From contig JANRKB010000031.1 in NCBI GenBank assembly GCA_033763695.1, forward strand, positions 81 through 64,080: DNA of 64,000 nucleotides. The letters run 5' to 3'. A program made the translations under genes and the position numbers. Numbering within the stretch: the stretch's first letter is position 1; the number at the start of each line of letters is the position of its first letter. The notes below the pieces were generated by a model. It had not been told where the DNA came from and did not search any database. It worked only from the letters and a program-made list of their open reading frames with translations. Of the stretch, positions 1,271 through 46,547 are shown piece by piece. This DNA is from Planctomycetota bacterium (GTDB lineage Bacteria; Planctomycetota; Phycisphaerae; Phycisphaerales; UBA1924).

Positions 1271-1350
1271 TTCGACGATCGATCGGAGAGGCTTGCGGCG
1301 TGTGCCGCCGCGGGCAAGTGAACTGCGACTGACGTGCGAAGGAGCCGACC

Positions 1351-27446: not shown

Positions 27447-30197
27447 TCAGCACCCGGCTTCGAACGCGCCGACGAACGCGTCAAAGTCGGTGAAGTCATA
27501 GAAACCGTCGCCATTGAAATCAGCGATATCTCCGTCTCCAGCTTCGTACGCCGTCACATACGCATCGAAATCGGTGAAATCCAAAAACCCATCTTCGTTG
27601 ATGTCAGATGGGCAGAAGCGGATTTGACCAGTGAAGATTTCTTCGCGACCGCAGCTGTTCTCAGCAATGCATGTGTATGTGCCAACGTCTTCTGTCGAAG
27701 TTGAGACCAGTTCAAGACTGCTGTAATTATAATACCTCACAATTGTGACGCGAGGGTCCTGCTCATCAACCGGAACGCCATCGCGATACCATGACCATGT
27801 GGCCGTCGCGGCTGCACTCAGAGGGCGCAATTCAGCGTCAAAGAACGCACGATCACCAATTACATAGTCGTCCGTGCCCAGCTCCCGCGCTTGCGGTTCA
27901 CACGAGTAGCTGAATGTCAGATCATCGCCCAGAGTGGTCCAGCCGTGCTGGGGATAGCCCTCAGCAGCGGTAAGGGTTCGCCCGCTCACCACAATCCGAT
28001 CGCCGCGCAGCACACCGGGCAACTCGACGTGAACCGGAACCACCTCACTCGACGGCAGACAGGACCACGACGAACAGTTCTGGCGGTATCGCGTCCACGC
28101 AAGCCGACGCAGTTCAACGCCGTTGCGGAGGTGCGCGATGACCACCTCCATCGGTGCCCGGTTGCTCGCCTGGTCACCCCCACCACTCCAGGAGACCGTC
28201 ATCTCACCATCGATACGAAGGACCTCGGGCAGGTCGATCGGCGCTTCCCAGTGGACGACGGGGATTCTGCCAGCCGAGTCGACACGATTGTCGGTCAGGC
28301 CACCCGGGCCGATGGGCGGGTTCACGTCATTCCCGACCGCCCACGCGCCACCCGAGCCATACCAACTGGGATCCCACACCATGGGGGTTGTGGCCTCGCG
28401 ATACCAAGCGTTTGGGGTGCCAAATCTGCCGCCGTAGCAGTACAGGTAATGCCACGTGCGCGCACCCAGCGAATCGTCGTCCGGGTTTCCAAGCGTTGTC
28501 CCTGCGGCGGAGTTGGACGGTGTGGTCCAGTCTGTGCTCCGCTTCCACTCAAACGCCAGACGCGGATACACGCCGACCTGCACTTCGCCGCTCTGCGTCT
28601 GACCGCACGAGTTGGCCGCGACCAGGGTGTACCGCCCGCTGTCGCTCGGCTTCGCGTTGGCGATGGACAGGTTGTTGGTCGTCGCTCCGCTGATCACCGC
28701 ACCTTCAGGAGTCGTGCCATCGACCAGCGCAACCCCGTTGCGATGCCAACGCAAAGACGGCGCGAACGCCCCGAGATCGGGCACGAGTTGTCCGGCCACC
28801 GCGAGTGTTGCCAGTTCCCCTTCGAGCACGGCAACGCCGGAACTCGTTGGCGCCGAGAAGACCACCGATGGGCAGTTGTGCGTGAACGTCAGATTGTCGG
28901 AGAAGTAGATATACCAAGGATGGTCCGCAACCGGCCGACCACTCACCACGATCACATCCCCCGCCTCAACAACGGGCACGATCAGATCCACCGGAATCTG
29001 CGCTTGCTGCTCTGCGATGGTAAAGGTTCGGCTCGTCAGGACCTCTGCCTGATCTCCGTTGCCTTGCGGCAGTCGTGCGATCACCGCCTCATACTGCTGT
29101 GAGTTGTTGACCCATTGAACCGACCACGAGCCCCGAATACGAAGACCGCCCGGGAGCGTCGCCGGGGCCACCCAGCGGATCACACCCGTGCGACTCGCGG
29201 AAGATGTGTTGAGGTTGTACGTCGAACTTGGACCAATAGACGGCGAGTTGTCGTCCGATGAAACCCACGAGCCGTTGCCCGTCTGGCCGAACCACGCCGG
29301 GTCCCACCGCAGAGCGGTTGGCTGATTGGTGTACCACGGATCGCCGCCGCCAAGCCCACCGCCCGACGTGTACCCATATGACCAGACCGGCTGGTCCTGG
29401 GAATCCAGCGAGGGATTCCCATAGCTCGTGTTGGCGTCGTAGTCTGGACGCGCTATCCACTCGCTTTGCCGGTTCCAACTGAACCCGATCGGGTACGAAG
29501 GCACCTTGGCAACCTTGAACTTGATGTCGTGGTACCAGACCGTCCACCATCCGTGGTCGCCGGTTGCACGCGTCGAGAAGGTGATGACGTCACCAGCGTT
29601 GATCGTGGGCACGCGCAGATGCACCGGCTGTTCTTTCTGACTCCAGATCGAACTCAGCGTGTCGCTGAAGAGCAGTTGTGCGCCGGCTGCCGAACCGCCG
29701 GGCATCCGCGCGATCCCGACCTGATAGGTCGCGGTGTTGTTCGTCCAGGCGCCCAGATAGTACCCATCAATGAGTAGCCCGCCCGGCAGCGAGGCCGGCG
29801 CAATCCACCGGAGCGCTGCGACGCGCGGCGAGGATGGCGCACCCGGAGTGAGAAATGATCCGCGCCCCACCGAAGGTGCGGTGTCATTCGACAAAACCCA
29901 GTTCGAGTTCGTGGCTTGGCCGAACCAAGACGGATCCCACACCAGTCGCGTACCCGCGCCGAGGTACCAGGGATTCGGCCCGCCCAAAGGATCGCCTGTG
30001 ACCCACACCGCCTCCCAGACAGGATTACCCAACGCATCCGCGGAGGGGTTGCCAGTAGTCGCACCCGCGGTGACACCTGGGACCCAGTCGGCATTCTGGT
30101 TCCAGACAAACCCTGGCGGATAAGCCTGCCCCAAACTCACCGAGGGAGAGAAAGTCGCCACAGCCGCCGCCGCGATCGCCACGAATCGAGAGTGCAT
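27447..30197 (-). CDS. secreted protein with three ~200-aa internal repeats, two Ig-like (I-set-like) segments and C-terminal dockerin-like module ending Gly-Cys
   Basis: Signal peptide MHSRFVAIAAAAVATFSPSVSLGQA. A strong SD (GGAGGGGGGGG) precedes the ATG. Repeat signature GF.WN...W....NP..D..G.PVW....G...NPWY.....LRWDP.WFGQ. Ig-like segments contain GRYTLVAANSCG and GTYTCIAENSCG. C-terminus is ..DINEDGFLDFTDFDAYVTAYEAG..DFNGDGFYDFTDFDAFVGAFEAGC*. Confidence 0.75.
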   Translation of the reverse strand: MHSRFVAIAAAAVATFSPSVSLGQAYPPGFVWNQNADWVPGVTAGATTGNPSADALGNPVWEAVWVTGDPLGGPNPWYLGAGTRLVWDPSWFGQATNSNWVLSNDTAPSVGRGSFLTPGAPSSPRVAALRWIAPASLPGGLLIDGYYLGAWTNNTATYQVGIARMPGGSAAGAQLLFSDTLSSIWSQKEQPVHLRVPTINAGDVITFSTRATGDHGWWTVWYHDIKFKVAKVPSYPIGFSWNRQSEWIARPDYDANTSYGNPSLDSQDQPVWSYGYTSGGGLGGGDPWYTNQPTALRWDPAWFGQTGNGSWVSSDDNSPSIGPSSTYNLNTSSASRTGVIRWVAPATLPGGLRIRGSWSVQWVNNSQQYEAVIARLPQGNGDQAEVLTSRTFTIAEQQAQIPVDLIVPVVEAGDVIVVSGRPVADHPWYIYFSDNLTFTHNCPSVVFSAPTSSGVAVLEGELATLAVAGQLVPDLGAFAPSLRWHRNGVALVDGTTPEGAVISGATTNNLSIANAKPSDSGRYTLVAANSCGQTQSGEVQVGVYPRLAFEWKRSTDWTTPSNSAAGTTLGNPDDDSLGARTWHYLYCYGGRFGTPNAWYREATTPMVWDPSWYGSGGAWAVGNDVNPPIGPGGLTDNRVDSAGRIPVVHWEAPIDLPEVLRIDGEMTVSWSGGGDQASNRAPMEVVIAHLRNGVELRRLAWTRYRQNCSSWSCLPSSEVVPVHVELPGVLRGDRIVVSGRTLTAAEGYPQHGWTTLGDDLTFSYSCEPQARELGTDDYVIGDRAFFDAELRPLSAAATATWSWYRDGVPVDEQDPRVTIVRYYNYSSLELVSTSTEDVGTYTCIAENSCGREEIFTGQIRFCPSDINEDGFLDFTDFDAYVTAYEAGDGDIADFNGDGFYDFTDFDAFVGAFEAGC
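27900..28565 (-). repeat. internal protein repeat C (coding, more diverged)
   Basis: aa ~579-800 (AFEWKRSTDW...NAWY...VWDPSWYGS...HWEAPIDLPEV...). Confidence 0.5.
28866..29489 (-). repeat. internal protein repeat B (coding)
   Basis: aa ~271-478 (GFSWNRQSEW...RWVAPATLPGG...). Confidence 0.6.
29490..30116 (-). repeat. internal protein repeat A of the triple-repeat gene (coding)
   Basis: aa ~62-270 of the ORF (GFVWNQNADW...RWIAPASLPGG...). Confidence 0.6.
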
Positions 30198-30305
30198 CCC
30201 CAACCCCCCCCTCCACGAGAATAACCATTTCACCTTGTCAGAATTAAGTTGTCTGCGCAACAACGGCGAAATCCTACGCGTAACTTGGAGAGGATGCAAA
30301 CAAAA

Positions 30306-30362: not shown

Positions 30363-33300
30363 TCAGCATCCCGTCTCGAACGCCGCAACGAAGGCGTCGA
30401 AGTCGGTGAAGTCGAGGAAGCCGTCGCCGTTGTAGTCGGCGGCAGCATCGCCCGCTTCAAACGCCGCGACGAAGGCGTCAAAGTCGGTGAAGTCGAGGAA
30501 GCCGTCGTTGTTGAAGTCCGGCGGGCAGCCCAGGCGGACTTCCACGATTGTCTGCGCACCCAGGCCCACGTTCGCGGGCACGCCCGCGGTCACGGCACCG
30601 ATGGCGCTGTTGTAGGTGTACAGCACCGGCGTGCCGTTGCGCGTCACGCTGTAGACCGTCGAACCGGCGGGCACGCGCACCACGGTTTCGATGTTGAGCG
30701 GGTCCTCGGAACGCATCGTGAAGGTGTGCGTGTAGCGCTGGGCCGCGGCGTTCTCTTCGACGAGTACATCAATCTGGTGGAAGTAGTTTGCGGGCGCGAC
30801 CTTGAGCACCACGTTGTTGAACTGCATGCTGTTCCACGCCGTGGGCAGCTTGGGCTTGAAGCGCATCGTGTTGCTGGGCGCGTCGGGCTGGTAGTCGAGG
30901 AAGGCCATGACGCTGTCAACGAACGTGCTCATGCTCTCCCACGCGTTGGGCCATGCGGTCTGGAGCTTGAAGTCGCTCTGGCCGGGGTAGAGGTAGGAGT
31001 TGGAGTAGGCGATCTGCTCCGCGCCCATGCCCGCGGGGCCGAGGCGATCGATCATGAGATCGACGCGCGACTTGTGGTTGTCGATGTCACCCTTGCCGCT
31101 GGTGTAGTCGGCGCGGGTGGCGTAGTGCAGGCCGTACCACAGCGTGCTGAGGAACCAGGGGCCGCCGTTCCAGTAGTTGTCGCCCCAGTAGCGGTTGACG
31201 GTGTCCTTGTGCTCGCCGGAGAAGTTGATGAGCGGGTGGTTGTTGCCGAAGGTGTCGGTGGCCACGCCGTTGATGCGATCAACGACCTTGTTCACGCGGG
31301 CGTCGAGCGGGCTATAGACCTCGAAGGGATAGGTGATGCCCAGTTGGCTGATGTCGGTGTTTTCGCCGTTCCAGTCCAGGCGCGCGTCGAGGCCGTTCTT
31401 GATGAGGTTGCGCTTGTTGAAGGCGTTGAAGGCTTCGGCGGGCGAGCCGATGGCGTCGAAGATCTTGCGAGCGTCTTCGAGGCCGCGCCACACGTTGGCG
31501 TTGCTGTAGATGAACGTGTCGTAGGAGTCTTCCCACACGTTGTTGGAGTACATGAGATTGAAGGGCGTGAACTGCAGGCGGCTGGGGTCAACCGTCGACG
31601 TCCGCGTCATCGCCTCGACCGAGTCGCGCACCTGCTCGATGTAGTTGCTGAGCAGGCCCGAGTCCGCGGTCATCTGGTACTGATACCAGACGCCCCACGG
31701 GAAGACGGCGGTCTCATCGATCTGCGGCGCGCCCCAGATCACATAGCCGTCGGTGGAGTACTTCTGCTTCCAGAAGCCCTTGCGGCCCCAACCTTCAAAG
31801 TCGCGGTACGTCGTGTTCTTCATCCACGAGTACACGCCCTCGGCCTCGCTCAGGTGGCCAGTGCGGGCCAGCGTCACCGCGGCATACACCGCGTCACGCG
31901 GCCAGACGTAGGGATACGCGCCGTTGTGGAAGCCCGCGATCACGCCGCCGTTCACGCCGTCGACGTGCAGCGCGGTGGCGAGCAGGCCGCGCTTCATGAG
32001 CGCGTCGTAGTCGTTGTCGGGGGTGTCGACCGTGGTGCCGTTGTTGAGCCAGGCCTGCCAGTAGTTGTCGGTCTGGTTCATCAGGCCGGTGATGTTGTTG
32101 TTGTAGAACCACTGCATGACGTTCTGGAGCTGGAAGTTGTACGTCCCGCTCGCGCCGGCGAAGTTGTCGACCGCGCCGGCCATGATGAAGTCGACTTCGA
32201 CAGGCTGACCGACGGGCAGCGTCACACGCGTGCCCATCCAGCCCTGGCCGTTGTCGCCGCTGGTGTCGCGCCAGAAGTCCGTTGCGGTCGAAGCGATCGA
32301 GCCTGAGTTGGTCAGCACCTTCATCGCCGAGGCGAGGTAGAGCGACTTGTTCTTCTCATAGCCGCTCGAGGTGGTGGGGTTGTACTCGTTGGGGCTGGAG
32401 AAGCCGGTGCCGGTGCCGGTCACGACGCGATAGGTGTTGTCATACGCGACCATCGCGGCCTTGGACGAATCGACGAACATGGCGTCGTAGCCGTCGCCGC
32501 CGTTGATCGCCGGATCGATGTACCAGTAGACATCGACGTCCTTGCTGCTCGCGCCGTTGTTGGTGAGCACGAGGCGCTTGAGGTAGATGTGGCGCTGGGG
32601 GTTGCCGCCGCCGTCGGTCGGCCACGAGACGCCGATGGGCGAGAAGTCGTACTGGGTAACCGCGATGTTGTTGCCGCCGGCGTAGAGACGCTGGCTGGTG
32701 ATGACGGTGTTGGAGTTGGGCTCGTAGGCCTGCGTGACATTGTCGTACGACACGCCGCTGGGGTTGCTGAGCCAGTGCGTGGTGCCGTCAACGCGGATAC
32801 CGGGCATCGCCTGATTCAGATGCATCTGGCCGCGCCAGCCGAGCGGCAGACCGGCGGGGAAGGTGTCGACGCCGTCGACGTAGCCTTCGTTGCGGGTGCC
32901 AACGCCGTAGACGCCGCCGGGGGTTGGGAAGTGCATGTCATAGACGGTGCCGTTGCGATCGATCATGCCGGCGGTGTAGGTGTTGCCGAAGATCGCCTCT
33001 TCCTTCCAGAAGTTGACGCCGGGATAGCCGATGGCGGGGCTGGGGTTGCCCGCGCCGGCGCCGGGCCACGCCAGTTTGTTGGTGTAGGTGTACGACGCGC
33101 CGCCGTTGGCGAAGACTTCGCCGCCGACGAAGGGCTTCCAAGCCGAGATCTTGTATTTGATGTTCTTGGCGTAGGCGCGGGTGGCGGCGGGGAGGGTGGC
33201 CTTCCACCAGTCGCGCGTGCCGCCCGAGTTCTCGTTCACCAGGAACGAGACGCTGCCGAGGTCATTGCGCAAAACCTGCGTGGTGCCAGCGCCGGTGCCG

Positions 33301-33563
33301 AACGAGCCGCTGGGCTCGCTGCCGTCGGTGGTGTAGTAGACGCACACGCGATCGTAAGTGAACTGGAACGAGACGCGGAAGTAGAGATCGACGGTCTCGC
33401 CATCGCGCGGCATGTCGGGCTCGCGCTGGGTGATGCCGCTGGGCTGGCTGAAGGTCTGGTTGGCGGGCGTGTGCTCCACGCTGCTGGGCTGAGCGGCGGC
33501 CACCCCGGCAAACGCGACGAGAGCGGCGGCAGACAACGACAAACGCTTGTCAAACATGAACAT
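30363..33563 (-). CDS. secreted glycoside hydrolase family 15 (glucoamylase/glucodextranase-like) with N-terminal beta-sandwich region and C-terminal dockerin-like module ending Gly-Cys
   Basis: Signal peptide MFMFDKRLSLSAAALVAFAGVAAAQ. GH15-type motifs GAYPYVWPRDAVYAAVTL and GGPWFLSTLWYGLHYA. C-terminus is CPPDFNNDGFLDFTDFDAFVAAFEAG..DYNGDGFLDFTDFDAFVAAFETGC*. Confidence 0.75.
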   Translation of the reverse strand: MFMFDKRLSLSAAALVAFAGVAAAQPSSVEHTPANQTFSQPSGITQREPDMPRDGETVDLYFRVSFQFTYDRVCVYYTTDGSEPSGSFGTGAGTTQVLRNDLGSVSFLVNENSGGTRDWWKATLPAATRAYAKNIKYKISAWKPFVGGEVFANGGASYTYTNKLAWPGAGAGNPSPAIGYPGVNFWKEEAIFGNTYTAGMIDRNGTVYDMHFPTPGGVYGVGTRNEGYVDGVDTFPAGLPLGWRGQMHLNQAMPGIRVDGTTHWLSNPSGVSYDNVTQAYEPNSNTVITSQRLYAGGNNIAVTQYDFSPIGVSWPTDGGGNPQRHIYLKRLVLTNNGASSKDVDVYWYIDPAINGGDGYDAMFVDSSKAAMVAYDNTYRVVTGTGTGFSSPNEYNPTTSSGYEKNKSLYLASAMKVLTNSGSIASTATDFWRDTSGDNGQGWMGTRVTLPVGQPVEVDFIMAGAVDNFAGASGTYNFQLQNVMQWFYNNNITGLMNQTDNYWQAWLNNGTTVDTPDNDYDALMKRGLLATALHVDGVNGGVIAGFHNGAYPYVWPRDAVYAAVTLARTGHLSEAEGVYSWMKNTTYRDFEGWGRKGFWKQKYSTDGYVIWGAPQIDETAVFPWGVWYQYQMTADSGLLSNYIEQVRDSVEAMTRTSTVDPSRLQFTPFNLMYSNNVWEDSYDTFIYSNANVWRGLEDARKIFDAIGSPAEAFNAFNKRNLIKNGLDARLDWNGENTDISQLGITYPFEVYSPLDARVNKVVDRINGVATDTFGNNHPLINFSGEHKDTVNRYWGDNYWNGGPWFLSTLWYGLHYATRADYTSGKGDIDNHKSRVDLMIDRLGPAGMGAEQIAYSNSYLYPGQSDFKLQTAWPNAWESMSTFVDSVMAFLDYQPDAPSNTMRFKPKLPTAWNSMQFNNVVLKVAPANYFHQIDVLVEENAAAQRYTHTFTMRSEDPLNIETVVRVPAGSTVYSVTRNGTPVLYTYNSAIGAVTAGVPANVGLGAQTIVEVRLGCPPDFNNDGFLDFTDFDAFVAAFEAGDAAADYNGDGFLDFTDFDAFVAAFETGC

Positions 33564-34022
33564 GTGTAAGTCCTTGAACGGACAATCCCCGAGAGTCCGC
33601 CGCCATGCGGGTGCGACAGCCCGCCACACAACGTGGTTGGCCGCCATTGCCGACTGGGCGACGTGTTCCGAGGCGGCATCCGGACCGCCTTCGGAATATG
33701 CATCCCAACTATCCATGCACGGGAGCGCAAGGTCAACTTCTGAAAGCGGTTCCGGCACACGACAACGTCAAAATCGGCTTGCGAACCGCCCCAGGGGCGT
33801 CAAACTGGGGAAAGTGCGGGTTATGGGATGGTGAGTTCGCGGCTCATTGCGATCGTGCGGAGCGAGCCGCGGCGGCGTGCGTGCGTTGGAGTTTGTCCGC
33901 CTGTGAAAGGGCGTGAACCAAACTTCACGGCACACGTCTGACGGTACCATGTCCCGCCGCTTTCACGCGCCACGTGTGGCGTACGAAAGACCCGCCGCGC
34001 AACCCGACTTTGGAGCCTTCCC

Positions 34023-37146: not shown

Positions 37147-38313
37147 TCAGTGCGCGAACTTTGTGTACATCTGCATCGTGAGTTCCGCGACTTTGGGCCA
37201 GGTGAAGCGCTCGCGGACGAGGCGTGCGCCCGCCTCGCCCATGCGGCGAGCGGTGTCGTCGTCGGAAAGCACGCGCGTGAGCGCGGCACCGGTGGCGCTC
37301 GCGTCACAGGGGACGACGCATCCCGCGCCGACCTCGGCGACTTCGGGGAAGTGGCATTGGTCGCTGATCACGACCGGCGTGCCGCAGGCGAGGGCTTCGG
37401 TGACGGCGACGCTGAAGCCTTCCTGTCTGCTGGGGAGGCAGAAGGCGGCGGCGTCGACGAAAGCCGCGATCTTGTCTGTGCCATAGACCGGGCCGACGAC
37501 ATGCGTGCGATCGCTGAGACCCAGGCGGGCGATCTGCTGCACGAAGGGGTCGCGTGCGCCGTCGTCGGGGCCGGCGACGACCAGCCGCAGGTGCGGCATT
37601 GACTTGGTGGCGATCGCGAACGCATCGGCGAGGTAATCCAGGCCCTTTTTGAAGTGCAGGCGGCTCAGGAAGAGGACGTAGGGATCGTCGGCGAGCGCGG
37701 CGTGCTTGGCGCGGAATGAGCCGCGCGGCGGGAGCGGCTCGATCTCGTTGAGGAAGACGCCGTTAGGGATGACGGCGGTGCGCGGGTTGAGCCCAAGCAG
37801 GCCCACGAGGCGATCTTCGTCGGCGTTGAGCACGTGGAGGAAGGAGGCGTTGCGGATCAGCGCGCCGAAGCCGAGGCGGAGCGCGATCTTCTTCTTGAGG
37901 GCGCGCTGGGCGAGCGACCAGGGGTCGAGCATGCCGTGCGGCACGAGGGCGTACGGGACGCCGGCGCGACGGGCGGCCTTGGCGGCGTGGATGAGCAGGG
38001 TGTCCCAGATGCCGTGGAGGTGCAGGTATGTGCCGCGGGCGAGGCGGGGCTCGAGGAACGCGCGAACATCGGAGCCCGTGAAGCGGGCGAGGCGCGAGGG
38101 CGGTGGCAGGGAGTGGACGGCGACGCGATCAAAGCCGGGGATCGGCGCGACCGAACGTGCGGTGCGCTCGGCGGCGGCGGGGTCGGCGTAGGCGAGGATG
38201 CCGACCTCGTGGCCGAGTGCGGCCTGGGCGGCGGCGAGGCGCGTGACCACGGCGGGTGGGCCGCCCTGGGCGGGGTCGAGGGAGGTCACAACGTGGAGGA
38301 TCTTCATCGACAT
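37147..38313 (-). CDS. glycosyltransferase family 4 (GT-B, retaining)
   Basis: EX7E motif region PSRQEGFSVAVTEALACGTPVV. An N-terminal GT4 domain is present. Confidence 0.9.
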   Translation of the reverse strand: MSMKILHVVTSLDPAQGGPPAVVTRLAAAQAALGHEVGILAYADPAAAERTARSVAPIPGFDRVAVHSLPPPSRLARFTGSDVRAFLEPRLARGTYLHLHGIWDTLLIHAAKAARRAGVPYALVPHGMLDPWSLAQRALKKKIALRLGFGALIRNASFLHVLNADEDRLVGLLGLNPRTAVIPNGVFLNEIEPLPPRGSFRAKHAALADDPYVLFLSRLHFKKGLDYLADAFAIATKSMPHLRLVVAGPDDGARDPFVQQIARLGLSDRTHVVGPVYGTDKIAAFVDAAAFCLPSRQEGFSVAVTEALACGTPVVISDQCHFPEVAEVGAGCVVPCDASATGAALTRVLSDDDTARRMGEAGARLVRERFTWPKVAELTMQMYTKFAH

Positions 38314-38427: not shown

Positions 38428-39945
38428 TTACCTGGGAGCCTGGACGATCACGCCGCGATAGACACGGACGCGAGCAGGCGAGGCGGAGGTCGTCTTGGGA
38501 GCGACGCGTGCGGCAGGCTTGGCGGGTGCGGCGGTGATGGCGCGCCGCATGCCGTAGCCGTAGGCGGCGTTGGTGCCGAAGCGGGGGGTCACGCCGCGGT
38601 TTGCAGAGCCGGAGCCCGAGCCACCTGAGCCGGAGCCGCTGCCGCCCGAAGCGCCGGGCGACGAGCCGCCGCTGCCCGAGCCGCCACCCGAACCGCCGCC
38701 GGAACCGCCGCCGGAACCGTTGTTGCTGGCGAGCGAACCGCCGCCGGAGCCCGAGCCGCCCGAGCCGCTGTTGGCGCTGCCGCCGCCCGAGCCACCGCCA
38801 CTGCCGCCACCGGCGCCTGCACCACTGCCAGCTCCGGCGGGGGCGGCGCAGGTGCGTGCCGCGACGGGTGCGAAGCGATTGAGCATGTAGTCGTTGAGCT
38901 TGCCGAAGTACTCGGGCGAGTCGATCCAGTCCCAGACGATGACGCCGTCGGCACCCTCAGCCTTGGGGATCTCGAGCATCTGGCGGGTGTTGACGTCGTT
39001 GAGCATCTTGCCCTTGTTGACGGTGGAGTCGTGGTACTGAGACCAGACGAAGGCGTAGACGGGCTTACCCTTGGCGACGCGGACGGCCTCGCGGAGCATC
39101 GAGCGGACATAGCCCGCGTGGTCGGTGGCGGCGTCCTCGGCCTTCTTGTTGTCGGGGCGACGGCCCTCAACCGAGTAGTAGAAGGTGTAGACGTCGCTGA
39201 AGAAGGCGTCCTGGAGATCCCAGAGCCAGGCCAGCTCGGTGTCGTTCATCGCCTGATAGTCGGCGTACTTCTTGGCATCAAACTGCACCCAGTACGAGCG
39301 CATCGGCATCGCGAAGACGCCCCACTTCATGTTCGGGCGGAGGCGCTTGCACTCCTTGATCGTCTGCTCGAAGTAGTCGCGGGTGGTGCTCAGCCAGGTC
39401 TGCTTGAAGACCTCTTCCTGAGCGGCGGCGTTCTTGCCGGCGAGGAGCTGCGGCTGGGTGCTGCGGACGTGGTTGCGCCAGGCGTCCTTGATGTTGAGTT
39501 TCTCGCCGCCGTTGCGGAGCGTGTAGACCGTCTCGGGGAACATGGTCCAGAAGGGGAGCCATGTCTCGTAGTCGATGACGGCGAGGCCGGTGGCGTTGGG
39601 ATCGGGGATCTTGGCGGCGACGTCCTTACGCACCTTGGCGAGGTGCAGGGACATGAAGTTCGAGTCCTGCGCGACGAGGTGCGGGCCCTCGGCGGGGAAG
39701 TTGCCGAACTGGTGCTCGTAGAAGATCGTGACGTCCTTCTTGACGTCAACGCCGGGGACGTTGATCTCATTGGCCCAGGTGGTGCCCGACTTGGAGATCA
39801 CGGCCCAGTGGGCGGTGAAGGGCTTGGTGCCCGCGCCGGAGCCTTGAGCGAGCGCCGGCGTGGCGAGGCCGGCCAGACCGACGAGCGAGGACGCCGCAAG
39901 GGCGAGCCACGCACGAGTGGAGATGGACTTGCTCGCAGACATCAT
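38428..39945 (-). CDS. secreted protein with glycoside hydrolase family 56 (hyaluronidase/hyaluronoglucosaminidase)-like domain, Gly/Ser-rich linker and basic C-terminal tail
   Basis: Signal peptide MMSASKSISTRAWLALAASSLVGLAGLATPALAQ, with GGAGGG 4 nt upstream. GLAVIDYETWLPFW matches the GH56 catalytic motif AVIDWE.WRP.W. NMKWGVFAMPMRSYW resembles LWGFYGFP. Confidence 0.5.
   Translation of the reverse strand: MMSASKSISTRAWLALAASSLVGLAGLATPALAQGSGAGTKPFTAHWAVISKSGTTWANEINVPGVDVKKDVTIFYEHQFGNFPAEGPHLVAQDSNFMSLHLAKVRKDVAAKIPDPNATGLAVIDYETWLPFWTMFPETVYTLRNGGEKLNIKDAWRNHVRSTQPQLLAGKNAAAQEEVFKQTWLSTTRDYFEQTIKECKRLRPNMKWGVFAMPMRSYWVQFDAKKYADYQAMNDTELAWLWDLQDAFFSDVYTFYYSVEGRRPDNKKAEDAATDHAGYVRSMLREAVRVAKGKPVYAFVWSQYHDSTVNKGKMLNDVNTRQMLEIPKAEGADGVIVWDWIDSPEYFGKLNDYMLNRFAPVAARTCAAPAGAGSGAGAGGGSGGGSGGGSANSGSGGSGSGGGSLASNNGSGGGSGGGSGGGSGSGGSSPGASGGSGSGSGGSGSGSANRGVTPRFGTNAAYGYGMRRAITAAPAKPAARVAPKTTSASPARVRVYRGVIVQAPR
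38590..38860 (-). repeat. simple coding repeat encoding a (GSGGG/GSGSG)n flexible linker
   Basis: Tandem ggagccgctgcc/gccgccgga-type units across ~270 nt. The protein reads GAGSGAGAGGGSGGGSGGGSANSGSGGSGSGGGS.... Confidence 0.6.
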
Positions 39946-40359
39946 CGAACCCTCCTGCCAGTTCCGTCGCACCTGTCGAGGTGCATCAGGATCAACTTCG
40001 ATAATCCGTTGTTCGGAGGCAAGGCGTCGTGGTTGCCTTTTCGAGAAGTGCGGGGTTTGGAACCGGATGCGCGGTTTATGCCGACGTTGGCACGGCCCAA
40101 GCCCCGACGTCCGAAGATCCTACGAACACGGCATTGGACGGGATCGGCCGTTCTTGCAACAAACTGAGGCGGCAGGGTTTGCAAGGTAGGAAAGCGGCTG
40201 TCGTGCGAGTCTCTGTGCAGGCCATAGCGCCGAAGGCCGATCTTTCTCGGTCCGGCGCGAACCAGACCGGCGCGGATGAAGAATAGGATGAGCGGGTTTG
40301 GATTTGGAACGGGAGCGGGACGCGCCTGCGAGCGCTGACCGAAGGATGACGCGGCAGAC

Positions 40360-41745
40360 ATGACAGCGGCCATTGGATATATCCTGTTGCTGGCGGTGGG
40401 CGTGGGCCTGCTGTACACGCTGAAGCAGCCGCGCTGGGCGTTCATGCTCATCGTGATGCAGTTCCCGCTGAAGCAGCTGCTGCAGTCGTATTCGCCGTTC
40501 CTGGTGCAGCAGAGCGCGCTGGTCAACATCGCGATCATGTTGGTGGCGTGCGGCGCGTTGATGGTGCGCGTCTTCAGGCGTGAGCCAGTGACGTTTGGCG
40601 CACGAAACCCGGTGAGTTACTGCATTGGTGGAATGTATCTGCTGGGCACCTTCGGGCTGTTCTACACGCCCGTGTTTGACAACGCGTCGAGCCTGATGTG
40701 GAGCGGCCTGCCGTACTACATCGAGATGCTCATCGTGCTGCCGCTGCTGCTTCTGGATCTGCGCGATTTCCGGCGGATGCTGACGGGCATGATGGCGTTC
40801 GGCATCATCATCGCCGCGCTGATTTTCGTGAACCCGGCGGCCAAGGTGACGAGCGAACGACTGGTGATCGACCTGGGTCAGGGCCTGGGCGTTTCGAACC
40901 TCAAGAGCAATCCGCTGGCGCTGGCTGAGATGGGCGGCCTGATCGCGCTGATTGCGGCGCTGATCGTCTATGAAGGCAAGAGCCAGATCCTGATCGTGCT
41001 GCGCGTGGGCGCGTTCCTGGCCGGGCTGGGCCTGGCGATCGCGTCGGGTTCGCGCGGGCAGGTGATCGCGGCGACGCTCATGGCGGTGCTGTTCTATCCC
41101 GCGGCACGCAAGGTGAAGGACATCAAGCAGTTCTTCCTGCTGGTGGTGGGCCTGGGGTTCCTGGGCGTCGTCATGTTCGCGACGTTCAAGCTGTTCATCA
41201 GCCACGACAACGCGGCACGCTGGGACATCGGGCTGATGCTCGAATCGCTGCGAGAGCGGCAGGGCCGCGTGGGCATGCTGCTCAGCGCGTTTGTGTCCAA
41301 TCCGCAGAGCTGGATCCAGGGGCTGGGCACCAACTACTTCAGCTACATCACGGGCACGGACTACGACTATTGCCACAACATCTTTGTGGAGATCTCCACC
41401 GAGAACGGCCTGATCGGCTGCACGCTCTATGTCGCGACGCTGTGGTTCACGATCAAGGAATGCCGTCGCCTGTTCGCCCTGCACAAGGATGATCCGTCGA
41501 TGCGATCGACGGCAGCCTTGCTGATCGCGATCTTCGGCTACAACCTGTTCCTCTCGCTCAAGCAGGGGTGCATGTGGACGATCCCCGCGCCGTGGTACTG
41601 GTGCCTGATCATCGCCAAGTTGAGCCGCTACGAGCAGGCGGTGGCGGTGTGGCAGTATCAGCAGGCGTATGAGTACACGCTGCCCGCGGAGGATCAGTAT
41701 CCGATGGCCGAGGGCTACGGCGAAGACCCCGTGCCGGCCCGCTGA
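40360..41745 (+). CDS. O-antigen ligase/polymerase (Wzy/WaaL) family polytopic membrane protein
   Basis: About 10-12 TM helices. Periplasmic loop has AIASGSRGQVIAATLMAVLFY (Wzy_C-like) and HNIFVEISTENGLIG. Confidence 0.7.
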   Translation: MTAAIGYILLLAVGVGLLYTLKQPRWAFMLIVMQFPLKQLLQSYSPFLVQQSALVNIAIMLVACGALMVRVFRREPVTFGARNPVSYCIGGMYLLGTFGLFYTPVFDNASSLMWSGLPYYIEMLIVLPLLLLDLRDFRRMLTGMMAFGIIIAALIFVNPAAKVTSERLVIDLGQGLGVSNLKSNPLALAEMGGLIALIAALIVYEGKSQILIVLRVGAFLAGLGLAIASGSRGQVIAATLMAVLFYPAARKVKDIKQFFLLVVGLGFLGVVMFATFKLFISHDNAARWDIGLMLESLRERQGRVGMLLSAFVSNPQSWIQGLGTNYFSYITGTDYDYCHNIFVEISTENGLIGCTLYVATLWFTIKECRRLFALHKDDPSMRSTAALLIAIFGYNLFLSLKQGCMWTIPAPWYWCLIIAKLSRYEQAVAVWQYQQAYEYTLPAEDQYPMAEGYGEDPVPAR

Positions 41746-41799: not shown

Positions 41800-44172
41800 G
41801 TGCGCGGTCGCGTGCCGGTGCGCTTGGCGTTGGAGGCTGGCCGCGGCGTGCCCTGGTTTGTTCATCCATCTCTGGCCTTGCTCGGCGCCGGTCTGGTCGG
41901 CGTGCCGATCCTGATCCACATCCTGATGCGTCGTCGTCGCAAGCCGGTGGCGTGGGGCGCGATGCGATTTGTCATTCAGGCGTATCAGCAGCAGCGGCGG
42001 CGGCTGCGCTTTGAGCAGTGGCTGCTGCTCGCGGCGCGCTGTCTGCTGGTGCTGCTGATCGCGCTGGCGCTTGCGCGGCCGATGCTCGGGGCGGCAGCAC
42101 CGCTCATCGCGCGTGCAAGTCGCACGGCATACATCCTGATTGATAATGGGCTGGCGTCCGAGGCCCGCATCAACGGCGCGACGGCACTGGAAGAGATGAA
42201 GGCGCAGGCGCGGGCCGTGCTCTCGACGCTTGATGCGTCGCGGGGTGATCGTGCCGCGCTGGTGGCGCTGGGTGCGCCGGCGGATGCCGTTGTTGCCGCG
42301 CCGACGCAGGACTTGGCCGCGGTGCGTGCGGCGATCGACGCGTTGCCGGCGACGGCCGGACCGACCGACCTGACCGGCGGGCTGGATGCGGTGCGCAGCG
42401 GGCTGACGCGTGATGGCACGCGTCCGGATGCCTCGGGGCTGAACATCGTCGTGCTGTCGCCGTGGCGCGTCGGATCGCTCGATGCGCGGCGTGCGGGTGC
42501 GGCGTCCGCCGCGGCATCGTCGTCGGTGCTGCTGCCTGTGCTCGCCTCGACGCCCTCCGAGGCGGCGCTCGAGAACGTCGCGATTACAAGTGCCGCGCCG
42601 CTGCGATCGGTCATCATCGGCGCGCGCGAGTCACGCACGGCGACCGAGGCCGTACGTGTGACCCTCACGCGGAGCGGCACCGGCGTCGGGCGCGAGCTCA
42701 GCGTGCGCGTGCGGCTGTCCTTTGTCGGGCGCAGCGGTGCCGGACCCGCGCAGACAGTGACGGCACGTTTCGAGGCGGGGCGAGCAACGTGTGAAGCAAC
42801 CGCGAGCGTCGATGTGCCCGCGCTGGCGGACGATGCCTTCGGCGTGACACTGCTGGCAACGCTCGAGGCGGATGCCGGCGCGAACGCGATCGCGGGTGAC
42901 GATGTTTATCGCCAGCCGGTGCCTGCGCGGCAGCGGTTGCGGGTCGCGCTCGTTGCGCCAGCGTCGAGCAGCCCGCGAACGGCCGCGGATTTCGAGGCGG
43001 CGGATTGGCTCGCGCTCTCGCTCTCGCCGGGCGGCGGCGATGCGCCGAATGCCGATCTGCGCGTGTCGCGGCTTGATCCGCGCTCGCTCAGCGCGGCGGA
43101 TGTCTTGGCGCAGGATGCGATCCTGGTGCCGCGACCCGATCTCCTCGATGACAACGCGTGGAAGATGTGCCGTCGCGCGGTGGATGGCGGCGCGCTGCTG
43201 CTGGTGACGCCACCGGCTGCGGCGGGTGCACAGTTGTGGACGGATGCGATGACCGCGGGGCTGGGCGTGCCGTGGAAGTTCTCGCGCGATCCGCGTGCAC
43301 TCACGCCGGCGGCGCAGATTGGAAGTGGTCAGCCTGGGAGCGCGAGTGCCAGTGGCGTGCTGGCGCTTCTTGCTGGGGAACTCATCGAACTGGCGAAGCC
43401 CGTGCAGGTGTCGCGCGTGCTTGATGTGCAAGTCGAGGATTCAGAGGTGCCGCTGCGTCTGAGCGACGGCACGCCGCTGCTCGTGCTTGCACGCGGCGTC
43501 CGAGCCGACGGCGGCGTCTCGAGCGGCATGGTCGCGCTCTTGGCCACGGCACCGGATCTGTCGTGGACGACGTTGCCCGCGATGCCCTTGATGGTGCCGC
43601 TGATGCAGGAACTTGTGCGGCAGGGTGTTGGGCAGGCGGCGGGCCGCACGACGACGACGGCGGGAGCGGCGTTGGTCGCGGGTCCGGGCATTGCCGAACT
43701 GATCCGCGTGGATGAGGCTGCGGGCGGTACGCCAAGTGAGAGTCCGCGCGAGACGCTCTCACCGGGCGGCACGCCGCGGTTTGCAGGGCTTTATCGCGGC
43801 GCGGACGCGGCGGGGATTACGCGATCGCTGATTGCGGTGAACCCCGATCCTGCGGGCGGACGTGTGGAGGCGCAGAGTCGGGCCGAGGTGCAGGCCGCAC
43901 TGGCGGCGCTGGGCGCGAATGTCGCATGGTTTGCGCCCGAGAGTGGAGACAGCGCTCCGGATCTCGCAAAGGCGATTGGCAACGCGTCGGAGAACGCCGG
44001 CGCATCGTGGCACGTGCCCGCGTTGATCGCGGCTCTTCTGCTGGTGCTGGGTGAGCTTGCGCTGGCGCGGCTCGCGAGTCACGCGCGGATCTTGAAGCCC
44101 GCGAACATCGGGTCGGGGCTGACTGCAAGCCAGACGCGGCCGCACGGTGCGGGAGAGGAGCGCGTCGCGTGA
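41800..44172 (+). CDS. BatA-like protein with N-terminal double-transmembrane domain (TIGR02226-type)
   Basis: N-terminus PWFVHPSLALLGAGLVGVPILIHILMRRRRKPVAWGAMRFV is the signature double-TM anchor. It is followed by a large extracytoplasmic region. The start codon is ambiguous (GTG at 41800 or 41848). Confidence 0.6.
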   Translation: MRGRVPVRLALEAGRGVPWFVHPSLALLGAGLVGVPILIHILMRRRRKPVAWGAMRFVIQAYQQQRRRLRFEQWLLLAARCLLVLLIALALARPMLGAAAPLIARASRTAYILIDNGLASEARINGATALEEMKAQARAVLSTLDASRGDRAALVALGAPADAVVAAPTQDLAAVRAAIDALPATAGPTDLTGGLDAVRSGLTRDGTRPDASGLNIVVLSPWRVGSLDARRAGAASAAASSSVLLPVLASTPSEAALENVAITSAAPLRSVIIGARESRTATEAVRVTLTRSGTGVGRELSVRVRLSFVGRSGAGPAQTVTARFEAGRATCEATASVDVPALADDAFGVTLLATLEADAGANAIAGDDVYRQPVPARQRLRVALVAPASSSPRTAADFEAADWLALSLSPGGGDAPNADLRVSRLDPRSLSAADVLAQDAILVPRPDLLDDNAWKMCRRAVDGGALLLVTPPAAAGAQLWTDAMTAGLGVPWKFSRDPRALTPAAQIGSGQPGSASASGVLALLAGELIELAKPVQVSRVLDVQVEDSEVPLRLSDGTPLLVLARGVRADGGVSSGMVALLATAPDLSWTTLPAMPLMVPLMQELVRQGVGQAAGRTTTTAGAALVAGPGIAELIRVDEAAGGTPSESPRETLSPGGTPRFAGLYRGADAAGITRSLIAVNPDPAGGRVEAQSRAEVQAALAALGANVAWFAPESGDSAPDLAKAIGNASENAGASWHVPALIAALLLVLGELALARLASHARILKPANIGSGLTASQTRPHGAGEERVA

Positions 44173-46547
44173 TCGAGCGACTCCTCAGCGCGCTTGGCGG
44201 CGGCGATCTCGCATCGGCGAGCGATGTGCACTTGGAGTGGGCGCATCCGATTCCGCTGTGGGCGTGGGCACCGATCATCGCCGCGGCGATCGCGATTGGC
44301 GCGTGGGGCTATCTGCGGCTTGAGGGTTCGCGGCTGGGGCGGTATGCGCTGGCCGCGCTGCGTGCCGCGCTCATCATCGCGCTGGTGGTGGTGCTGTCGG
44401 GGCCACAGCTGGTGCGTCGGCCCGAGACGCTGCAGCGCGACGCCGTGGTGATGCTGCTGGATCGTTCGGCGTCGCTCGGCGTGAGTGATCAGGATGCGTC
44501 GCGAACGCGTGAGGATGATCTTCGTGCCGCGCTGAGTGCCGCGGGCTCGACGTGGCAGACGCTCGCCAAGGACCACGATGTTCTGTGGCTGGGGTTTGAC
44601 GCGGGTGTCGCGGATCTGGGGCAGGGCGGCGAGGTGCCGACGCTGCGCGAGCCCGAGGGGCGGCGCACGCAGATCAATGCCGCGCTGGAGCAGGCGTGGC
44701 GGCGCGTGGGGACGCGGCCGGTGTCGGGAATCGTGATGCTCAGCGATGGGCGGACGACTGATCCGCCAAGCAAGTCGCTGGTGCGGCAACTGGCGGCCAA
44801 GCAGGTGCCGGTGTTCGTTGTGCCGCTGGGTTCGCCCACGCCGCGGCTTGATCTTGCCGTGACGGGAGTGCAGGCGCCGGCGGCGGCTTTTGTAAACGAT
44901 CAGGTTCCCGTGGGCGTTGAGATCACGCGTCGCGGCGGTGCCGCGGATGAAGCGTGGCCCGCGGGCACGGTAGAACTGGTGGATGCGGCGACGGGCGCGG
45001 TGCTGGATTCGACGCCGCTGCCGACGTCGGGGGGCGAGTCGTCGCGCGTGACGCTGACCACGCGTCCGACAATGGTGGGGGATTCGACGTGGCGGGTGCG
45101 GATCGTGCGCGCGGACGCATCGGCGCGTGATCCATCGCCCGCGAACGACAGCGCGGATGTAAAATTGTCGCTGGTGGATCGCAAAGTGCGGGTGGCGTAC
45201 TTCGACGGCACGCCGCGCTGGGAGTATCGATATCTGAAGAACCTGCTGCTGCGCGAGACGAGCATCCGCAGCTCGACGATGCTGCTGTCGGCGGATAAGC
45301 GGTTTATCCAGGAGGGGTCAGAGATCCTGCTGAGCGTGCCGCGGACGAGCGAAGAGTGGCGCGACATTGATGTCGTCATCATGGGCGATGTGCGTGCTGA
45401 GCTGTTCAGCACGGGACAGCTCGAGGCGCTGCGCGATCATGTGGCGCAGCGCGGCGCTGGGCTGCTGTGGATCGGTGGGCCTGGCGCGACGCCCGCGAGT
45501 TGGCAGGGCACGCCGCTGGCCGATCTGCTGCCGATGCGGCTTGCGCCGGCGTCAGGCGCGGATGCGGGCCAGAGCGGCCCGGGTGTTTGGACGGAGTCGA
45601 TCGTTGTTTCGCCCACGCCGGTGGCAGTGCGGATGGGCGTGATGCGGCTGGCGAGCGAAGGTACGCACGCGGCGGATGACCCGCTGAACTACTGGCCCGC
45701 GTCGCTCAGTGATCCGGGGCGCGGCTGGTCGCAACTGCGATGGGCCCAGTTGATCGAGCAGGGCAGGCTCAAGCCCGCGGCAGAGGTGTTGGCCGAGGCG
45801 CTGGGCGTGAGCACGCAGAAGACGTCGCCGCTGGTCATCACGATGCGTTATGCCAGCGGGCGCAGCGTGTATGTCGGCACTGACGAAACATGGCGCTGGC
45901 GCTACGCACGCGGCGAGCAGTTGCCCGAGCGATTCTGGATTCCGCTCATCCGCATGCTTGCGCGCGAACGGCTCGCGCTGGCGGACAAGCCCGCGGCACT
46001 GACCGTCGCGCCGCAGCAGGCTTCGACCCAACAGCCGGTGCAGATCAGCGTGCAGTTGCTCGATCAGTCTGTGCTGCAGACGCGCCCCGAAGGCGTCCGC
46101 GTGCGGGTGACGCCCGATGACGCGCGACGCGGCGATCAGGCGGCGGAGATCGTGCTGCGGCCTGCGCCGGGCGCGGGCGGTGCTGCCAACACCTTCGCCG
46201 GTCAGTGGGTGCCGCTGGAGCCCGGTGGCTATCGGGTGGTCGTGAATGACCCGCTGCTTTCGAGCGCGAATCTGGCGGCCCGAGTCGATGTGCGATCGAC
46301 CGACGACGAGCGCAACAACCCCGCGGCGGACCACGGCCTGCTCGAGACGCTCGCCAAAGACACCGGCGGCGTGACGCTGTCGGCGGCGCGCCTGAGCGAA
46401 CTGCCCGCGCTGCTGCCCAATCGTGAACTGCGACTGCTCGGCACGCCCGAGATCAGAACGCTGTGGGACAATGCGATCGTGCTGAGCCTGCTCGTGCTGA
46501 TCGTCGGGCTGGAGTGGATCGGACGGCGCGTGATGCGGATGCCTTAG
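44169..46547 (+). CDS. membrane protein with von Willebrand factor A domain and class-I glutamine-amidotransferase-like C-terminal domain (BatA/BatB-like)
   Basis: The GTG start overlaps the upstream stop (GTGA). It has two N-terminal TM helices. vWA MIDAS motif VVMLLDRSASLGVSD. The C-terminal region with IDVVIMGDV...GAGLLWIGGPG is GATase1-like. Confidence 0.65.
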   Translation: MIERLLSALGGGDLASASDVHLEWAHPIPLWAWAPIIAAAIAIGAWGYLRLEGSRLGRYALAALRAALIIALVVVLSGPQLVRRPETLQRDAVVMLLDRSASLGVSDQDASRTREDDLRAALSAAGSTWQTLAKDHDVLWLGFDAGVADLGQGGEVPTLREPEGRRTQINAALEQAWRRVGTRPVSGIVMLSDGRTTDPPSKSLVRQLAAKQVPVFVVPLGSPTPRLDLAVTGVQAPAAAFVNDQVPVGVEITRRGGAADEAWPAGTVELVDAATGAVLDSTPLPTSGGESSRVTLTTRPTMVGDSTWRVRIVRADASARDPSPANDSADVKLSLVDRKVRVAYFDGTPRWEYRYLKNLLLRETSIRSSTMLLSADKRFIQEGSEILLSVPRTSEEWRDIDVVIMGDVRAELFSTGQLEALRDHVAQRGAGLLWIGGPGATPASWQGTPLADLLPMRLAPASGADAGQSGPGVWTESIVVSPTPVAVRMGVMRLASEGTHAADDPLNYWPASLSDPGRGWSQLRWAQLIEQGRLKPAAEVLAEALGVSTQKTSPLVITMRYASGRSVYVGTDETWRWRYARGEQLPERFWIPLIRMLARERLALADKPAALTVAPQQASTQQPVQISVQLLDQSVLQTRPEGVRVRVTPDDARRGDQAAEIVLRPAPGAGGAANTFAGQWVPLEPGGYRVVVNDPLLSSANLAARVDVRSTDDERNNPAADHGLLETLAKDTGGVTLSAARLSELPALLPNRELRLLGTPEIRTLWDNAIVLSLLVLIVGLEWIGRRVMRMP

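Follow-up and report, generated by a model that had tools for sequence, protein, structure and literature searches.

What is a gene of glycoside hydrolase family 56 (GH56), the family of the animal and venom hyaluronidases, doing in a planctomycete, and on which polysaccharide would its product act? The question is raised by a gene on the reverse strand of a 64,000-nucleotide stretch of contig JANRKB010000031.1 (assembly GCA_033763695.1, Planctomycetota bacterium of the order Phycisphaerales), referred to here as the window. An earlier note made from the sequence alone had read the product of this gene as a secreted, hyaluronidase-like protein with a long linker. Combining homology with synteny, we favour with moderate confidence a composite reading, in which the product works in the periplasm or at the cell surface as an endo-beta-N-acetylhexosaminidase, processing the Wzy-made polysaccharide of its own locus. 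The family label itself is ordinary, and any Pfam or dbCAN run would give it. Three things are new relative to the literature that we searched: how large and how taxonomically focused the bacterial clade is, its consistent occurrence in polysaccharide-biosynthesis loci (equipped for sulfation in one subclade), and the linker-tail architecture of the protein.

Family assignment and protein architecture

The gene and the parts of its product are as follows.

38428-39945, reverse strand: GH56-family gene, 505 amino acids from ATG 39945 (Pfam PF01630, open reading frame (ORF) list)
39847-39945, reverse strand: predicted Sec signal peptide MMSASKSISTRAWLALAASSLVGLAGLATPALA, with its K/R n-region, hydrophobic core and AxA site read from the sequence
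38848-39825, reverse strand: GH56 catalytic (beta/alpha) barrel domain, residues 50-375
38593-38847, reverse strand: Gly/Ser-rich low-complexity linker, residues 376-460, about 85 residues, delimited by composition
38431-38592, reverse strand: conserved basic C-terminal tail, residues 461-514, ending VRVYRGVIVQAPR, delimited by composition and by comparison with the closest orthologue (locus L023)

The window gene encodes a GH56-fold protein, as the earlier note had proposed. The match to PF01630 (Glyco_hydro_56) has an E-value of 4e-32 and 111.9 bits against a curated cut-off of 23.2, spanning residues 78-370 and most of the domain (profile positions 44-327 of 335). In a phmmer comparison with Protein Data Bank (PDB) sequences, solely HYAL1 (3.6e-14), PH-20, the bee enzyme and wasp Ves v 2 fall below E=0.01, within a range of 3.6e-14 to 8.8e-12, and the weaker matches all lie on the Gly/Ser linker. 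A profile built from 108 bacterial relatives matches these four PDB entries again, now at 4.5e-59 to 4.4e-43, and no others, and PF01630 is found in all 108 of these relatives, with one dockerin as the sole other Pfam domain. Structure prediction agrees: a first AlphaFold model from eight sequences was mediocre (pLDDT 72.7), its top structural matches being GH56 only, and a second from 108 sequences reached pLDDT 95.9 and pTM 0.92. This second model is a distorted (beta/alpha)7-8 TIM barrel that superposes on solved GH56 structures, the comparison that the earlier note had suggested; six GH56 entries lead the Foldseek matches (E 3e-19 to 2e-16, TM 0.70-0.77), and the next match has a TM of 0.35. 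Neither of the outcomes that would have spoken against the earlier reading, a missing GH56 profile match or a failed barrel superposition, was thus observed.

The maximal ORF runs from the first GTG at 39972 (38428-39972, reverse strand, 514 amino acids), and residue numbers here count from that codon; subtracting 9 gives the numbering from ATG 39945. The ATG, also the start chosen in the earlier note, is the likelier of the two because a Shine-Dalgarno-like GGAGGG sits 5 nt upstream of it. Signal peptide cleavage is probable after ALA and before QG, and the N-termini of relatives resemble this region. The secreted layout of domain, linker and tail described earlier holds up in the predicted signal peptide, the Gly/Ser stretch and the basic tail; the linker, put at about 90 residues in the earlier note, is closer to 85, and the tail, called Lys/Arg/Pro-rich there, is rather rich in Ala, Arg, Pro and Val.

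A slightly longer linker slice (residues 376-469, 94 residues) holds 44 Gly and 24 Ser, and imperfect DNA repeats of 9-24 nt lie beneath the linker. Both its sequence and its length differ in the 72%-identical orthologue of L023, and C-terminal extensions rich in Gly, Ser and Pro are common across the clade. The 54-residue tail carries 10 Arg or Lys and no acidic residue (pI 12). Despite the differing linker, the L023 tail (about 1300-1660, forward strand) keeps 'VPRFG.NAA.GY..RRA' and the exact terminal VRVYRGVIVQAP, and elsewhere in the clade the tails close with 'LPNGQ(I/V)VVSSS...KVA(S/N)VP' or with sequences resembling 'VADVPT'. Within their last 14 residues, 11 of 82 tails of the family carry a [VIL]xx[VA]P motif, where shuffling predicts 0.83 (shuffle maximum 4). 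From its sequence, the basic tail looks like an undescribed C-terminal sorting or anchoring peptide. C208 is the only Cys of the GH56 domain; another, C375, is placed where domain and linker meet. The charge of the domain was considered as a hint of an anionic substrate and proved uninformative (domain pI 7.2, family median 5.4).

Active site

In HYAL1 and the bee enzyme, the GH56 active site comprises Glu131/113 as acid/base, Asp129/111, Tyr202/184, Tyr247/227 and Trp321/301 (PMC13080975). Equivalences come from an hmmalign alignment to the family profile of HYAL1, PH-20 and bee-enzyme fragments, which were reconstructed out of the phmmer alignments, and column conservation was counted across 154 family sequences.

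39565-39573, reverse strand: Asp134-Tyr135-Glu136, equivalent to HYAL1 Asp129 (positioning) and Glu131 (general acid/base)
39313-39315, reverse strand: Phe220, at the position of HYAL1 Tyr202 and bee Tyr184
39187-39189, reverse strand: Tyr262, equivalent to HYAL1 Tyr247, which hydrogen-bonds the acetamido group of the substrate
38932-38934, reverse strand: Trp347, equivalent to HYAL1 Trp321

The catalytic motif GLAVIDYETWLPFW picked out in the earlier note is present and holds D134 and E136 (codons 39565-39573). By alignment, four of the five canonical active-site residues are retained (Asp134, Glu136, Tyr262 and Trp347), so that the protein has both the DxE pair and the equivalents of Tyr247 and Trp321. 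These columns are conserved across the family: Asp in 149 of 154 and Glu in 151 of 154, Tyr262 in 144 and Trp347 in 143, alongside Arg212 of the LRP motif in 150. As judged from the sequences, the substrate-assisted machinery would therefore be intact.

The departure concerns the fifth residue. The 'LWGFYGFP-like block' noted earlier exists, as KWGVFAMP, and it carries Phe220 in place of the active-site Tyr202 of the animal enzymes, a residue that is strictly conserved and functionally important in animal GH56 (PMC13080975). In most of the 154 sequences (111) this column is Tyr, while Phe stands there in 29 and Trp in 8, so that the departure is one of the window protein and a minority of the clade; Phe is also found in the two closest relatives, P0001 and the L023 protein. 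The substitution leaves the homology unaffected and may alter activity.

Tandem GH56 paralogues occur at two related loci, L007 (8368-9372 and 10091-11101) and L022 (4409-5764 and 5832-7004); the two L007 copies differ at the column of Tyr202, one with Tyr and one with Phe.

A native gene in a large bacterial clade

The GH56 gene is a native bacterial gene. It shares the 64-kb window with genes for UvrB, HisRS, LeuRS, pyruvate kinase and BatA/VWA proteins, the UvrB being 76-77% identical to Phycisphaerales UvrB, and its GC content at third codon positions (GC3, 0.89) is the same as that of the neighbouring genes. Animal DNA in the genome bin, or a very recent transfer from an animal to the bacterium, might be suspected, given that all characterised GH56 enzymes are eukaryotic (PMC11669647) and that the top PDB matches are all animal enzymes. 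Against this, the gene lies mid-contig among UvrB, LeuRS, HisRS and pyruvate kinase, is preceded by a Shine-Dalgarno site, is just 19-28% identical to the animal enzymes, and is part of a deep bacterial clade in which identity between members falls to about 24%. Because of codon usage, flanking genes and clade depth, we reject contamination and recent transfer as virtually impossible. The exact window protein was not found in the protein collection searched, though UvrB of the same contig is present there; the GT4 protein of the window, with the start codon used here, is not on record either.

How large is this clade? An exhaustive profile search of 1.84 billion representative sequences returned 2374 proteins at E<=1e-3, of which 1194 reached E<=1e-10 and 299 reached E<=1e-30. 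The best 150 of the 2374 matches reach down to 187 bits and animal catalytic-domain fragments score 118-150 bits on the same profile, so nearly all of these 150 are nearer the bacterial profile than the animal enzymes are; two multi-domain animal proteins (cockroach and Caenorhabditis) are among them. At least about 145 clusters at 50% identity outscore the animal enzymes on the clade profile. The statement of the earlier note that bacterial members are rare thus stands for characterised enzymes and fails for sequence space.

All named bacterial members that were looked up belong to Phycisphaerales, Phycisphaerae or Planctomycetota, except records under 'Leptolyngbya sp. PLA1/PLA2', and all are annotated as 'hypothetical protein'. 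In a scan of a species-representative genome collection with a single motif pattern, 11 of 11 loci were from Phycisphaerae. A word-indexed search gave seven relatives, two of them with organism names (Phycisphaerales or Planctomycetota), and searching the word-indexed database with the 108-sequence alignment gave at least 19 proteins, a figure that is no taxonomic census. In a neighbour-joining tree with three animal fragments, distances were saturated and eukaryote sampling was too thin to place the animal enzymes as sister or nested.

To our knowledge, CAZy lists some bacterial GH56 sequences, none of them characterised. The literature that we searched held no paper describing a bacterial or Phycisphaerae GH56 enzyme: one preprint counts GH56 among the CAZymes of Acidobacteria metagenome-assembled genomes and goes no further, and a review assigns GH56 to mammalian and venom enzymes and microbial hyaluronidases to other families (PMC11669647).

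Linkage to polysaccharide-assembly genes

Within the window, the gene is flanked as follows.

37147-38313, reverse strand: GT4 glycosyltransferase (Glycos_transf_1 E=1e-32, Glyco_trans_4_4 1e-16)
39946-40359, no strand: intergenic stretch from which the GH56 and Wzy-like genes diverge, presumably a shared promoter region
40360-41745, forward strand: Wzy_C-like membrane protein (O-antigen polymerase/ligase superfamily), about 460 residues, predicted polytopic, divergent from the GH56 gene

Both neighbours named in the earlier note are borne out. The GT4 gene lies 114 bp downstream of the GH56 gene on the same strand, with no terminator-like site between the two in the window, and they are probably co-transcribed. 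The O-antigen-ligase-like neighbour matches Wzy_C at E=1.2e-6, though just below the cut-off, and its orthologue in L002 has about nine hydrophobic segments. The intergenic region 39946-40359 contains no sigma-70-like consensus match and no Rfam match. A match of the GT4 protein to the Pfam family 'GT4-conflict' prompted a check for anti-phage defence, which was rejected: PADLOC gave zero matches for the GH56, GT4 and Wzy-like proteins.

Is this arrangement peculiar to the window? We compared 20 distinct loci, comprising the window, 11 genome loci and 8 reached by exact-protein look-ups, and considered neighbours within 10 kb of the GH56 gene. An iterated hidden Markov model built from the window Wzy-like protein found only close relatives, and a Pfam scan of each protein was used instead.

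15 of 20 loci: Wzy_C-like gene (a Pfam match or a clear homologue of one), usually directly upstream and divergent
2 further loci: unassigned polytopic protein of about 450 residues in the Wzy position
17 of 20 loci: GT4 gene
13 of 20 loci: GalE/TviC-like epimerase of the short-chain dehydrogenase/reductase superfamily, typically convergent and immediately downstream
6 of 20 loci: Wzx/MatE- or Polysacc_synt-like protein
7 of 20 loci: Exo_endo_phos (EEP) protein
4 of 20 loci: sulfotransferases, with one further JGI locus for which there is no DNA
6 of 20 loci: APS kinase, ATP sulfurylase or CysQ-like genes

The linkage of GH56 to Wzy-type glycan-assembly genes is conserved. GT4 orthologues of 49-84% identity follow the GH56 gene in L002, L004, L006 and L023, the 72%-identical L023 gene being followed by a GT4 gene 84% identical to that of the window, and Wzy-like homologues of 34% identity occupy the same divergent position in L002 and L003. 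Two further loci, L024 and L025, were looked up as a test after the pattern had been set, and in both a Wzy_C gene is divergent from GH56, followed by epimerase or GT4 genes; L025 mirrors the window order exactly (Wzy_C divergent, then GH56, a GT4 gene on the GH56 strand and a second GT4 gene) and adds a BY-kinase-like ATPase. WcaF-like acetyltransferases and several GT4 and GT2 genes are also found among the related loci. An EEP gene stands immediately upstream of GH56, usually divergent, in the seven loci that have one, for example at L008 8517-9596, L016 6514-7596, L020 8722-9795, L021 8816-9940 and L022 3266-4261, and is not found in the window.

Sulfation-related genes of either kind occur in 7 of the 20 loci, all from a more distant subclade (L008, L010, L011, L016 and L020-L022); the window and its nearer relatives are without them, and the window's own locus has no sulfotransferase and no 3'-phosphoadenosine-5'-phosphosulfate (PAPS) gene. 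The clusters of this subclade encode three or four sulfotransferases together with ATP sulfurylase, APS kinase and a CysQ-like phosphatase, and also hold Wzx, Wzy and GT4 genes (L016 1401-9667 and 16799-18669; L020 1-5491 and 12344-13210; L022 9330-11228 and 15481-16386; L021 4908-6077 and 14600-15631), and are candidate sulfated-exopolysaccharide loci in Phycisphaerae.

Proposed role and alternative explanations

How would such an enzyme serve a polysaccharide locus? A predicted Sec signal peptide would carry the protein across the inner membrane, and the barrel is expected, by homology, to run the substrate-assisted retaining mechanism of the hyaluronidases, with Glu136 as the putative general acid/base. 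Asp134 and Tyr262 would position the 2-acetamido group of a beta-linked N-acetylhexosamine (HexNAc) in subsite -1 as the nucleophile, Trp347 would line the pocket, and we infer retaining cleavage next to that beta-linked HexNAc. The substrate is most likely not animal hyaluronan and would rather be a HexNAc-containing extracellular or capsular polymer from the adjacent Wzy-dependent machinery (the Wzy_C-like and GT4 proteins). Synteny, together with the analogy to PslG, BcsZ, PelA, ExoK and WceF, leads us to infer that the enzyme trims, sizes or releases the cell's own polymer, or clears stray polymer. More speculatively, the Gly/Ser linker and basic tail would probably tether it to the envelope or to an anionic matrix, and Phe220, in place of the water-orienting Tyr, may slow hydrolysis or tilt the enzyme towards transglycosylation. 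As far as sequence and synteny indicate, it is more likely to act on the cell's own surface polymer than on animal tissue. The earlier note had suggested remodelling of a self or foreign polysaccharide; because the synteny is conserved, self is favoured over foreign, and the GlcNAc-uronate composition that it proposed for the polymer drew no support from any analysis made.

Several observations weigh against this own-polymer role. The Wzy_C match of the window protein, at 28.8 bits, is below the 31.7-bit cut-off, Wzy_C also covers WaaL ligases and O-oligosaccharyltransferases, and the best NCBIfam match of the protein is a weak one to TfpM (E=0.0014). The window locus is minimal (Wzy-like, GH56 and GT4), with no flippase, initiating transferase, export or nucleotide-sugar gene found within about 10 kb, and neither an initiating transferase nor a Wza-type exporter lies within 10 kb at any of the 20 loci. 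At three or four of the 20, no evident glycan gene lies close by (L007, L009 and L013 being only partly populated). At the active site, Phe220 replaces a Tyr that is strictly conserved in animals (PMC13080975), and the window protein could therefore be weakly active. Lastly, the closest orthologue, L023 (186-1691, forward strand), has an in-frame TAG at the position of Asn180 (LLAGK*TTAQ), owing to which it was called as two genes of 170 and 313 amino acids; either that population carries a pseudogene here or the assembly is wrong.

The enzyme might instead be secreted to forage, depolymerising exogenous glycosaminoglycans (GAGs) or GAG-like microbial polymers for food or invasion. Its fold and four of its five active-site residues are those of enzymes that cleave hyaluronan and chondroitin sulfate (PMC4030862), it is predicted to be secreted with a basic tail that could bind polyanions, and bacteria of the Planctomycetes-Verrucomicrobia-Chlamydiae (PVC) group are known degraders of sulfated polysaccharides (PMC7356697). 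Against this, neither the window nor the 20 loci, as far as these are annotated, link GH56 to a lyase, sulfatase, GH88/GH105-type hydrolase, transporter or sugar-catabolic gene, nothing in the window suggests GAG catabolism, and the genes that do recur beside it serve biosynthesis (Wzy, Wzx, GT4, epimerase, acetyltransferase and sulfotransferase). We regard foraging as improbable. The same low probability is given to a protein whose main activity is not hydrolysis: it would be a transglycosylase, remodelling or joining HexNAc-containing chains, or a catalytically weak polysaccharide binder. This idea draws on Phe220 at the Tyr202 position, where quantum mechanics/molecular mechanics calculations give the Tyr the job of orienting the hydrolytic water in the deglycosylation step (PMC13080975), on the known transglycosylation by GH56 enzymes (PMC11669647), and on the recurrence of Phe or Trp at this column in 37 of 154 members, with adjacent Phe and Tyr copies in L007. 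Yet Asp134, Glu136, Tyr262 and Trp347 are all kept, which disfavours a dead enzyme, and the Phe/Trp variants are scattered over the clade instead of forming one lineage with coordinated changes.

Less probable still is a cell-wall enzyme, an endo-beta-N-acetylglucosaminidase that would cut peptidoglycan or some other glycan of the envelope as the cell grows or divides, or else an O-linked glycan that the Wzy_C-like protein would attach as an O-oligosaccharyltransferase. Substrate-assisted catalysis needs only a beta-HexNAc in subsite -1, which peptidoglycan offers; the Wzy_C superfamily, with the weak TfpM match, includes ligases and O-oligosaccharyltransferases; and the Ser-rich linker resembles O-glycosylation acceptor regions. 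A peptidoglycan-binding domain was not found, however, Pfam on the 108 members giving PF01630 and the one dockerin, the neighbours are heteropolysaccharide-assembly genes and not cell-division or peptidoglycan genes, and the structural likeness to the peptidoglycan hydrolase Cwp19 is weak (TM 0.35). Processing of the locus's own polysaccharide thus remains our preferred reading. A broader version of it, in which Phycisphaerae make GAG-like exopolysaccharides, sulfated in many lineages, through a Wzx/Wzy pathway with GH56 as a dedicated processing component, is a tentative possibility on which we would not rely.

Other features of the window

Two proteins of about 790 residues, with overlapping stop and start codons, are encoded directly downstream of the Wzy-like gene (41800-46547, forward strand). 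The first combines a BatA N-terminal double-transmembrane domain with VWA, and the second has no confident family; the BatA/VWA-type pairing is typical of Planctomycetota. On the reverse strand, a 1131-residue protein (30363-33758) with a weak GH15 (glucoamylase-like) match (E=1.2e-7) lies between the glycan locus and the propeller proteins; an 874-residue protein (24829-27453) with a weak Rax2 beta-propeller match precedes a 950-residue ORF (27447-30299) that did not pass the GC3 filter and is set in a part of the window with lower GC (0.62-0.64). Rfam at gathering thresholds found no RNA family anywhere in the window, and an ARAGORN 'tRNA-???' with a two-base anticodon at 644-736 (forward strand) overlaps a high-GC3 ORF on the opposite strand (329-1267, reverse) and is almost certainly a false positive.

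Significance and comparison with known systems

If the own-polymer role is true, GH56 joins the enzyme families built into exopolysaccharide pathways, and widespread Phycisphaerae of sludge, soil and water are predicted to make a beta-HexNAc-containing, possibly GAG-like polymer. Prokaryotic, disulfide-poor GH56 enzymes would become available, perhaps easier to produce than animal hyaluronidases, and the evolutionary origin of the latter would become testable. Should the GAG-like version be true as well, a 'metazoan' family would gain a sister clade in bacteria that is deep, diverse and tied to biosynthesis, which would open the possibility of an ancient exchange with animals, and the Phe220 variants might be transglycosylases and not hydrolases. 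It would also point to candidate makers of the sulfated GAG-like polymers of granular sludge and microbial mats (PMC7356697), and to an enzyme that might serve as a diagnostic for these polymers. If the proposed role fails, the window protein is merely another annotated CAZyme.

Compared with the animal and venom enzymes (human HYAL1, 2pe4; PH-20, 9jub; bee Api m 2, 1fcq; wasp Ves v 2, 2atm), the window protein shares the DxE motif, the Tyr247 and Trp321 equivalents, the LRPxxxWG motif and secretion, and the same substrate-assisted mechanism is therefore to be expected. It differs from them in its low identity (19-28%), in Phe at the Tyr202 position, and in having a Gly/Ser linker and basic tail instead of the EGF-like C-terminal domain; the disulfides of the animal enzymes cannot form in its GH56 domain because that holds a single Cys (C208). 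Unlike them, it is found in a bacterial host and a glycan-biosynthesis neighbourhood.

Some bacterial exopolysaccharide loci encode hydrolases or lyases, for example PslG (GH39), PelA (GH166), BcsZ (GH8), ExoK (GH16, succinoglycan), WceF (stewartan) and AlgL (PL5). By analogy, the window protein would share with these the proposed role of an exported, polymer-cleaving enzyme whose gene is conserved beside a polymerase and glycosyltransferases, whereas their folds belong to other families, and we know of no GH56 reported as a processing hydrolase of an exopolysaccharide locus. The bacterial hyaluronan degraders (PL8 and PL16 lyases and GH84 enzymes of the NagH type) are likewise secreted and act at beta-HexNAc linkages, GH84 also by substrate-assisted catalysis (PMC12254123). 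They belong to unrelated families and folds, the lyases using beta-elimination, and are virulence or foraging factors not tied to biosynthetic loci (PMC11669647).

Closest in setting is a cluster of Pontiella (Kiritimatiellae, also of the PVC group), which combines PF13469-type sulfotransferases with GT2/GT4 hexosaminyltransferases and has been put forward as making a sulfated GAG-like exopolymer (PMC7356697). The text of that paper gives zero matches for 'hyaluronidase' (PMC7356697). According to the same source, it is not known which organisms make the sulfated GAG-like polymers of granular sludge and of anammox granules, and prokaryotic GAG sulfotransferases are not established (PMC7356697). 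The window locus has neither a sulfotransferase nor a PAPS gene and itself offers no evidence of sulfation. The resemblance lies with the 7 of 20 Phycisphaerae loci of the same superphylum that bring sulfotransferase, PAPS, GT4 and Wzy/Wzx genes together with GH56, and these related loci are candidate producers of such sulfated polymers.

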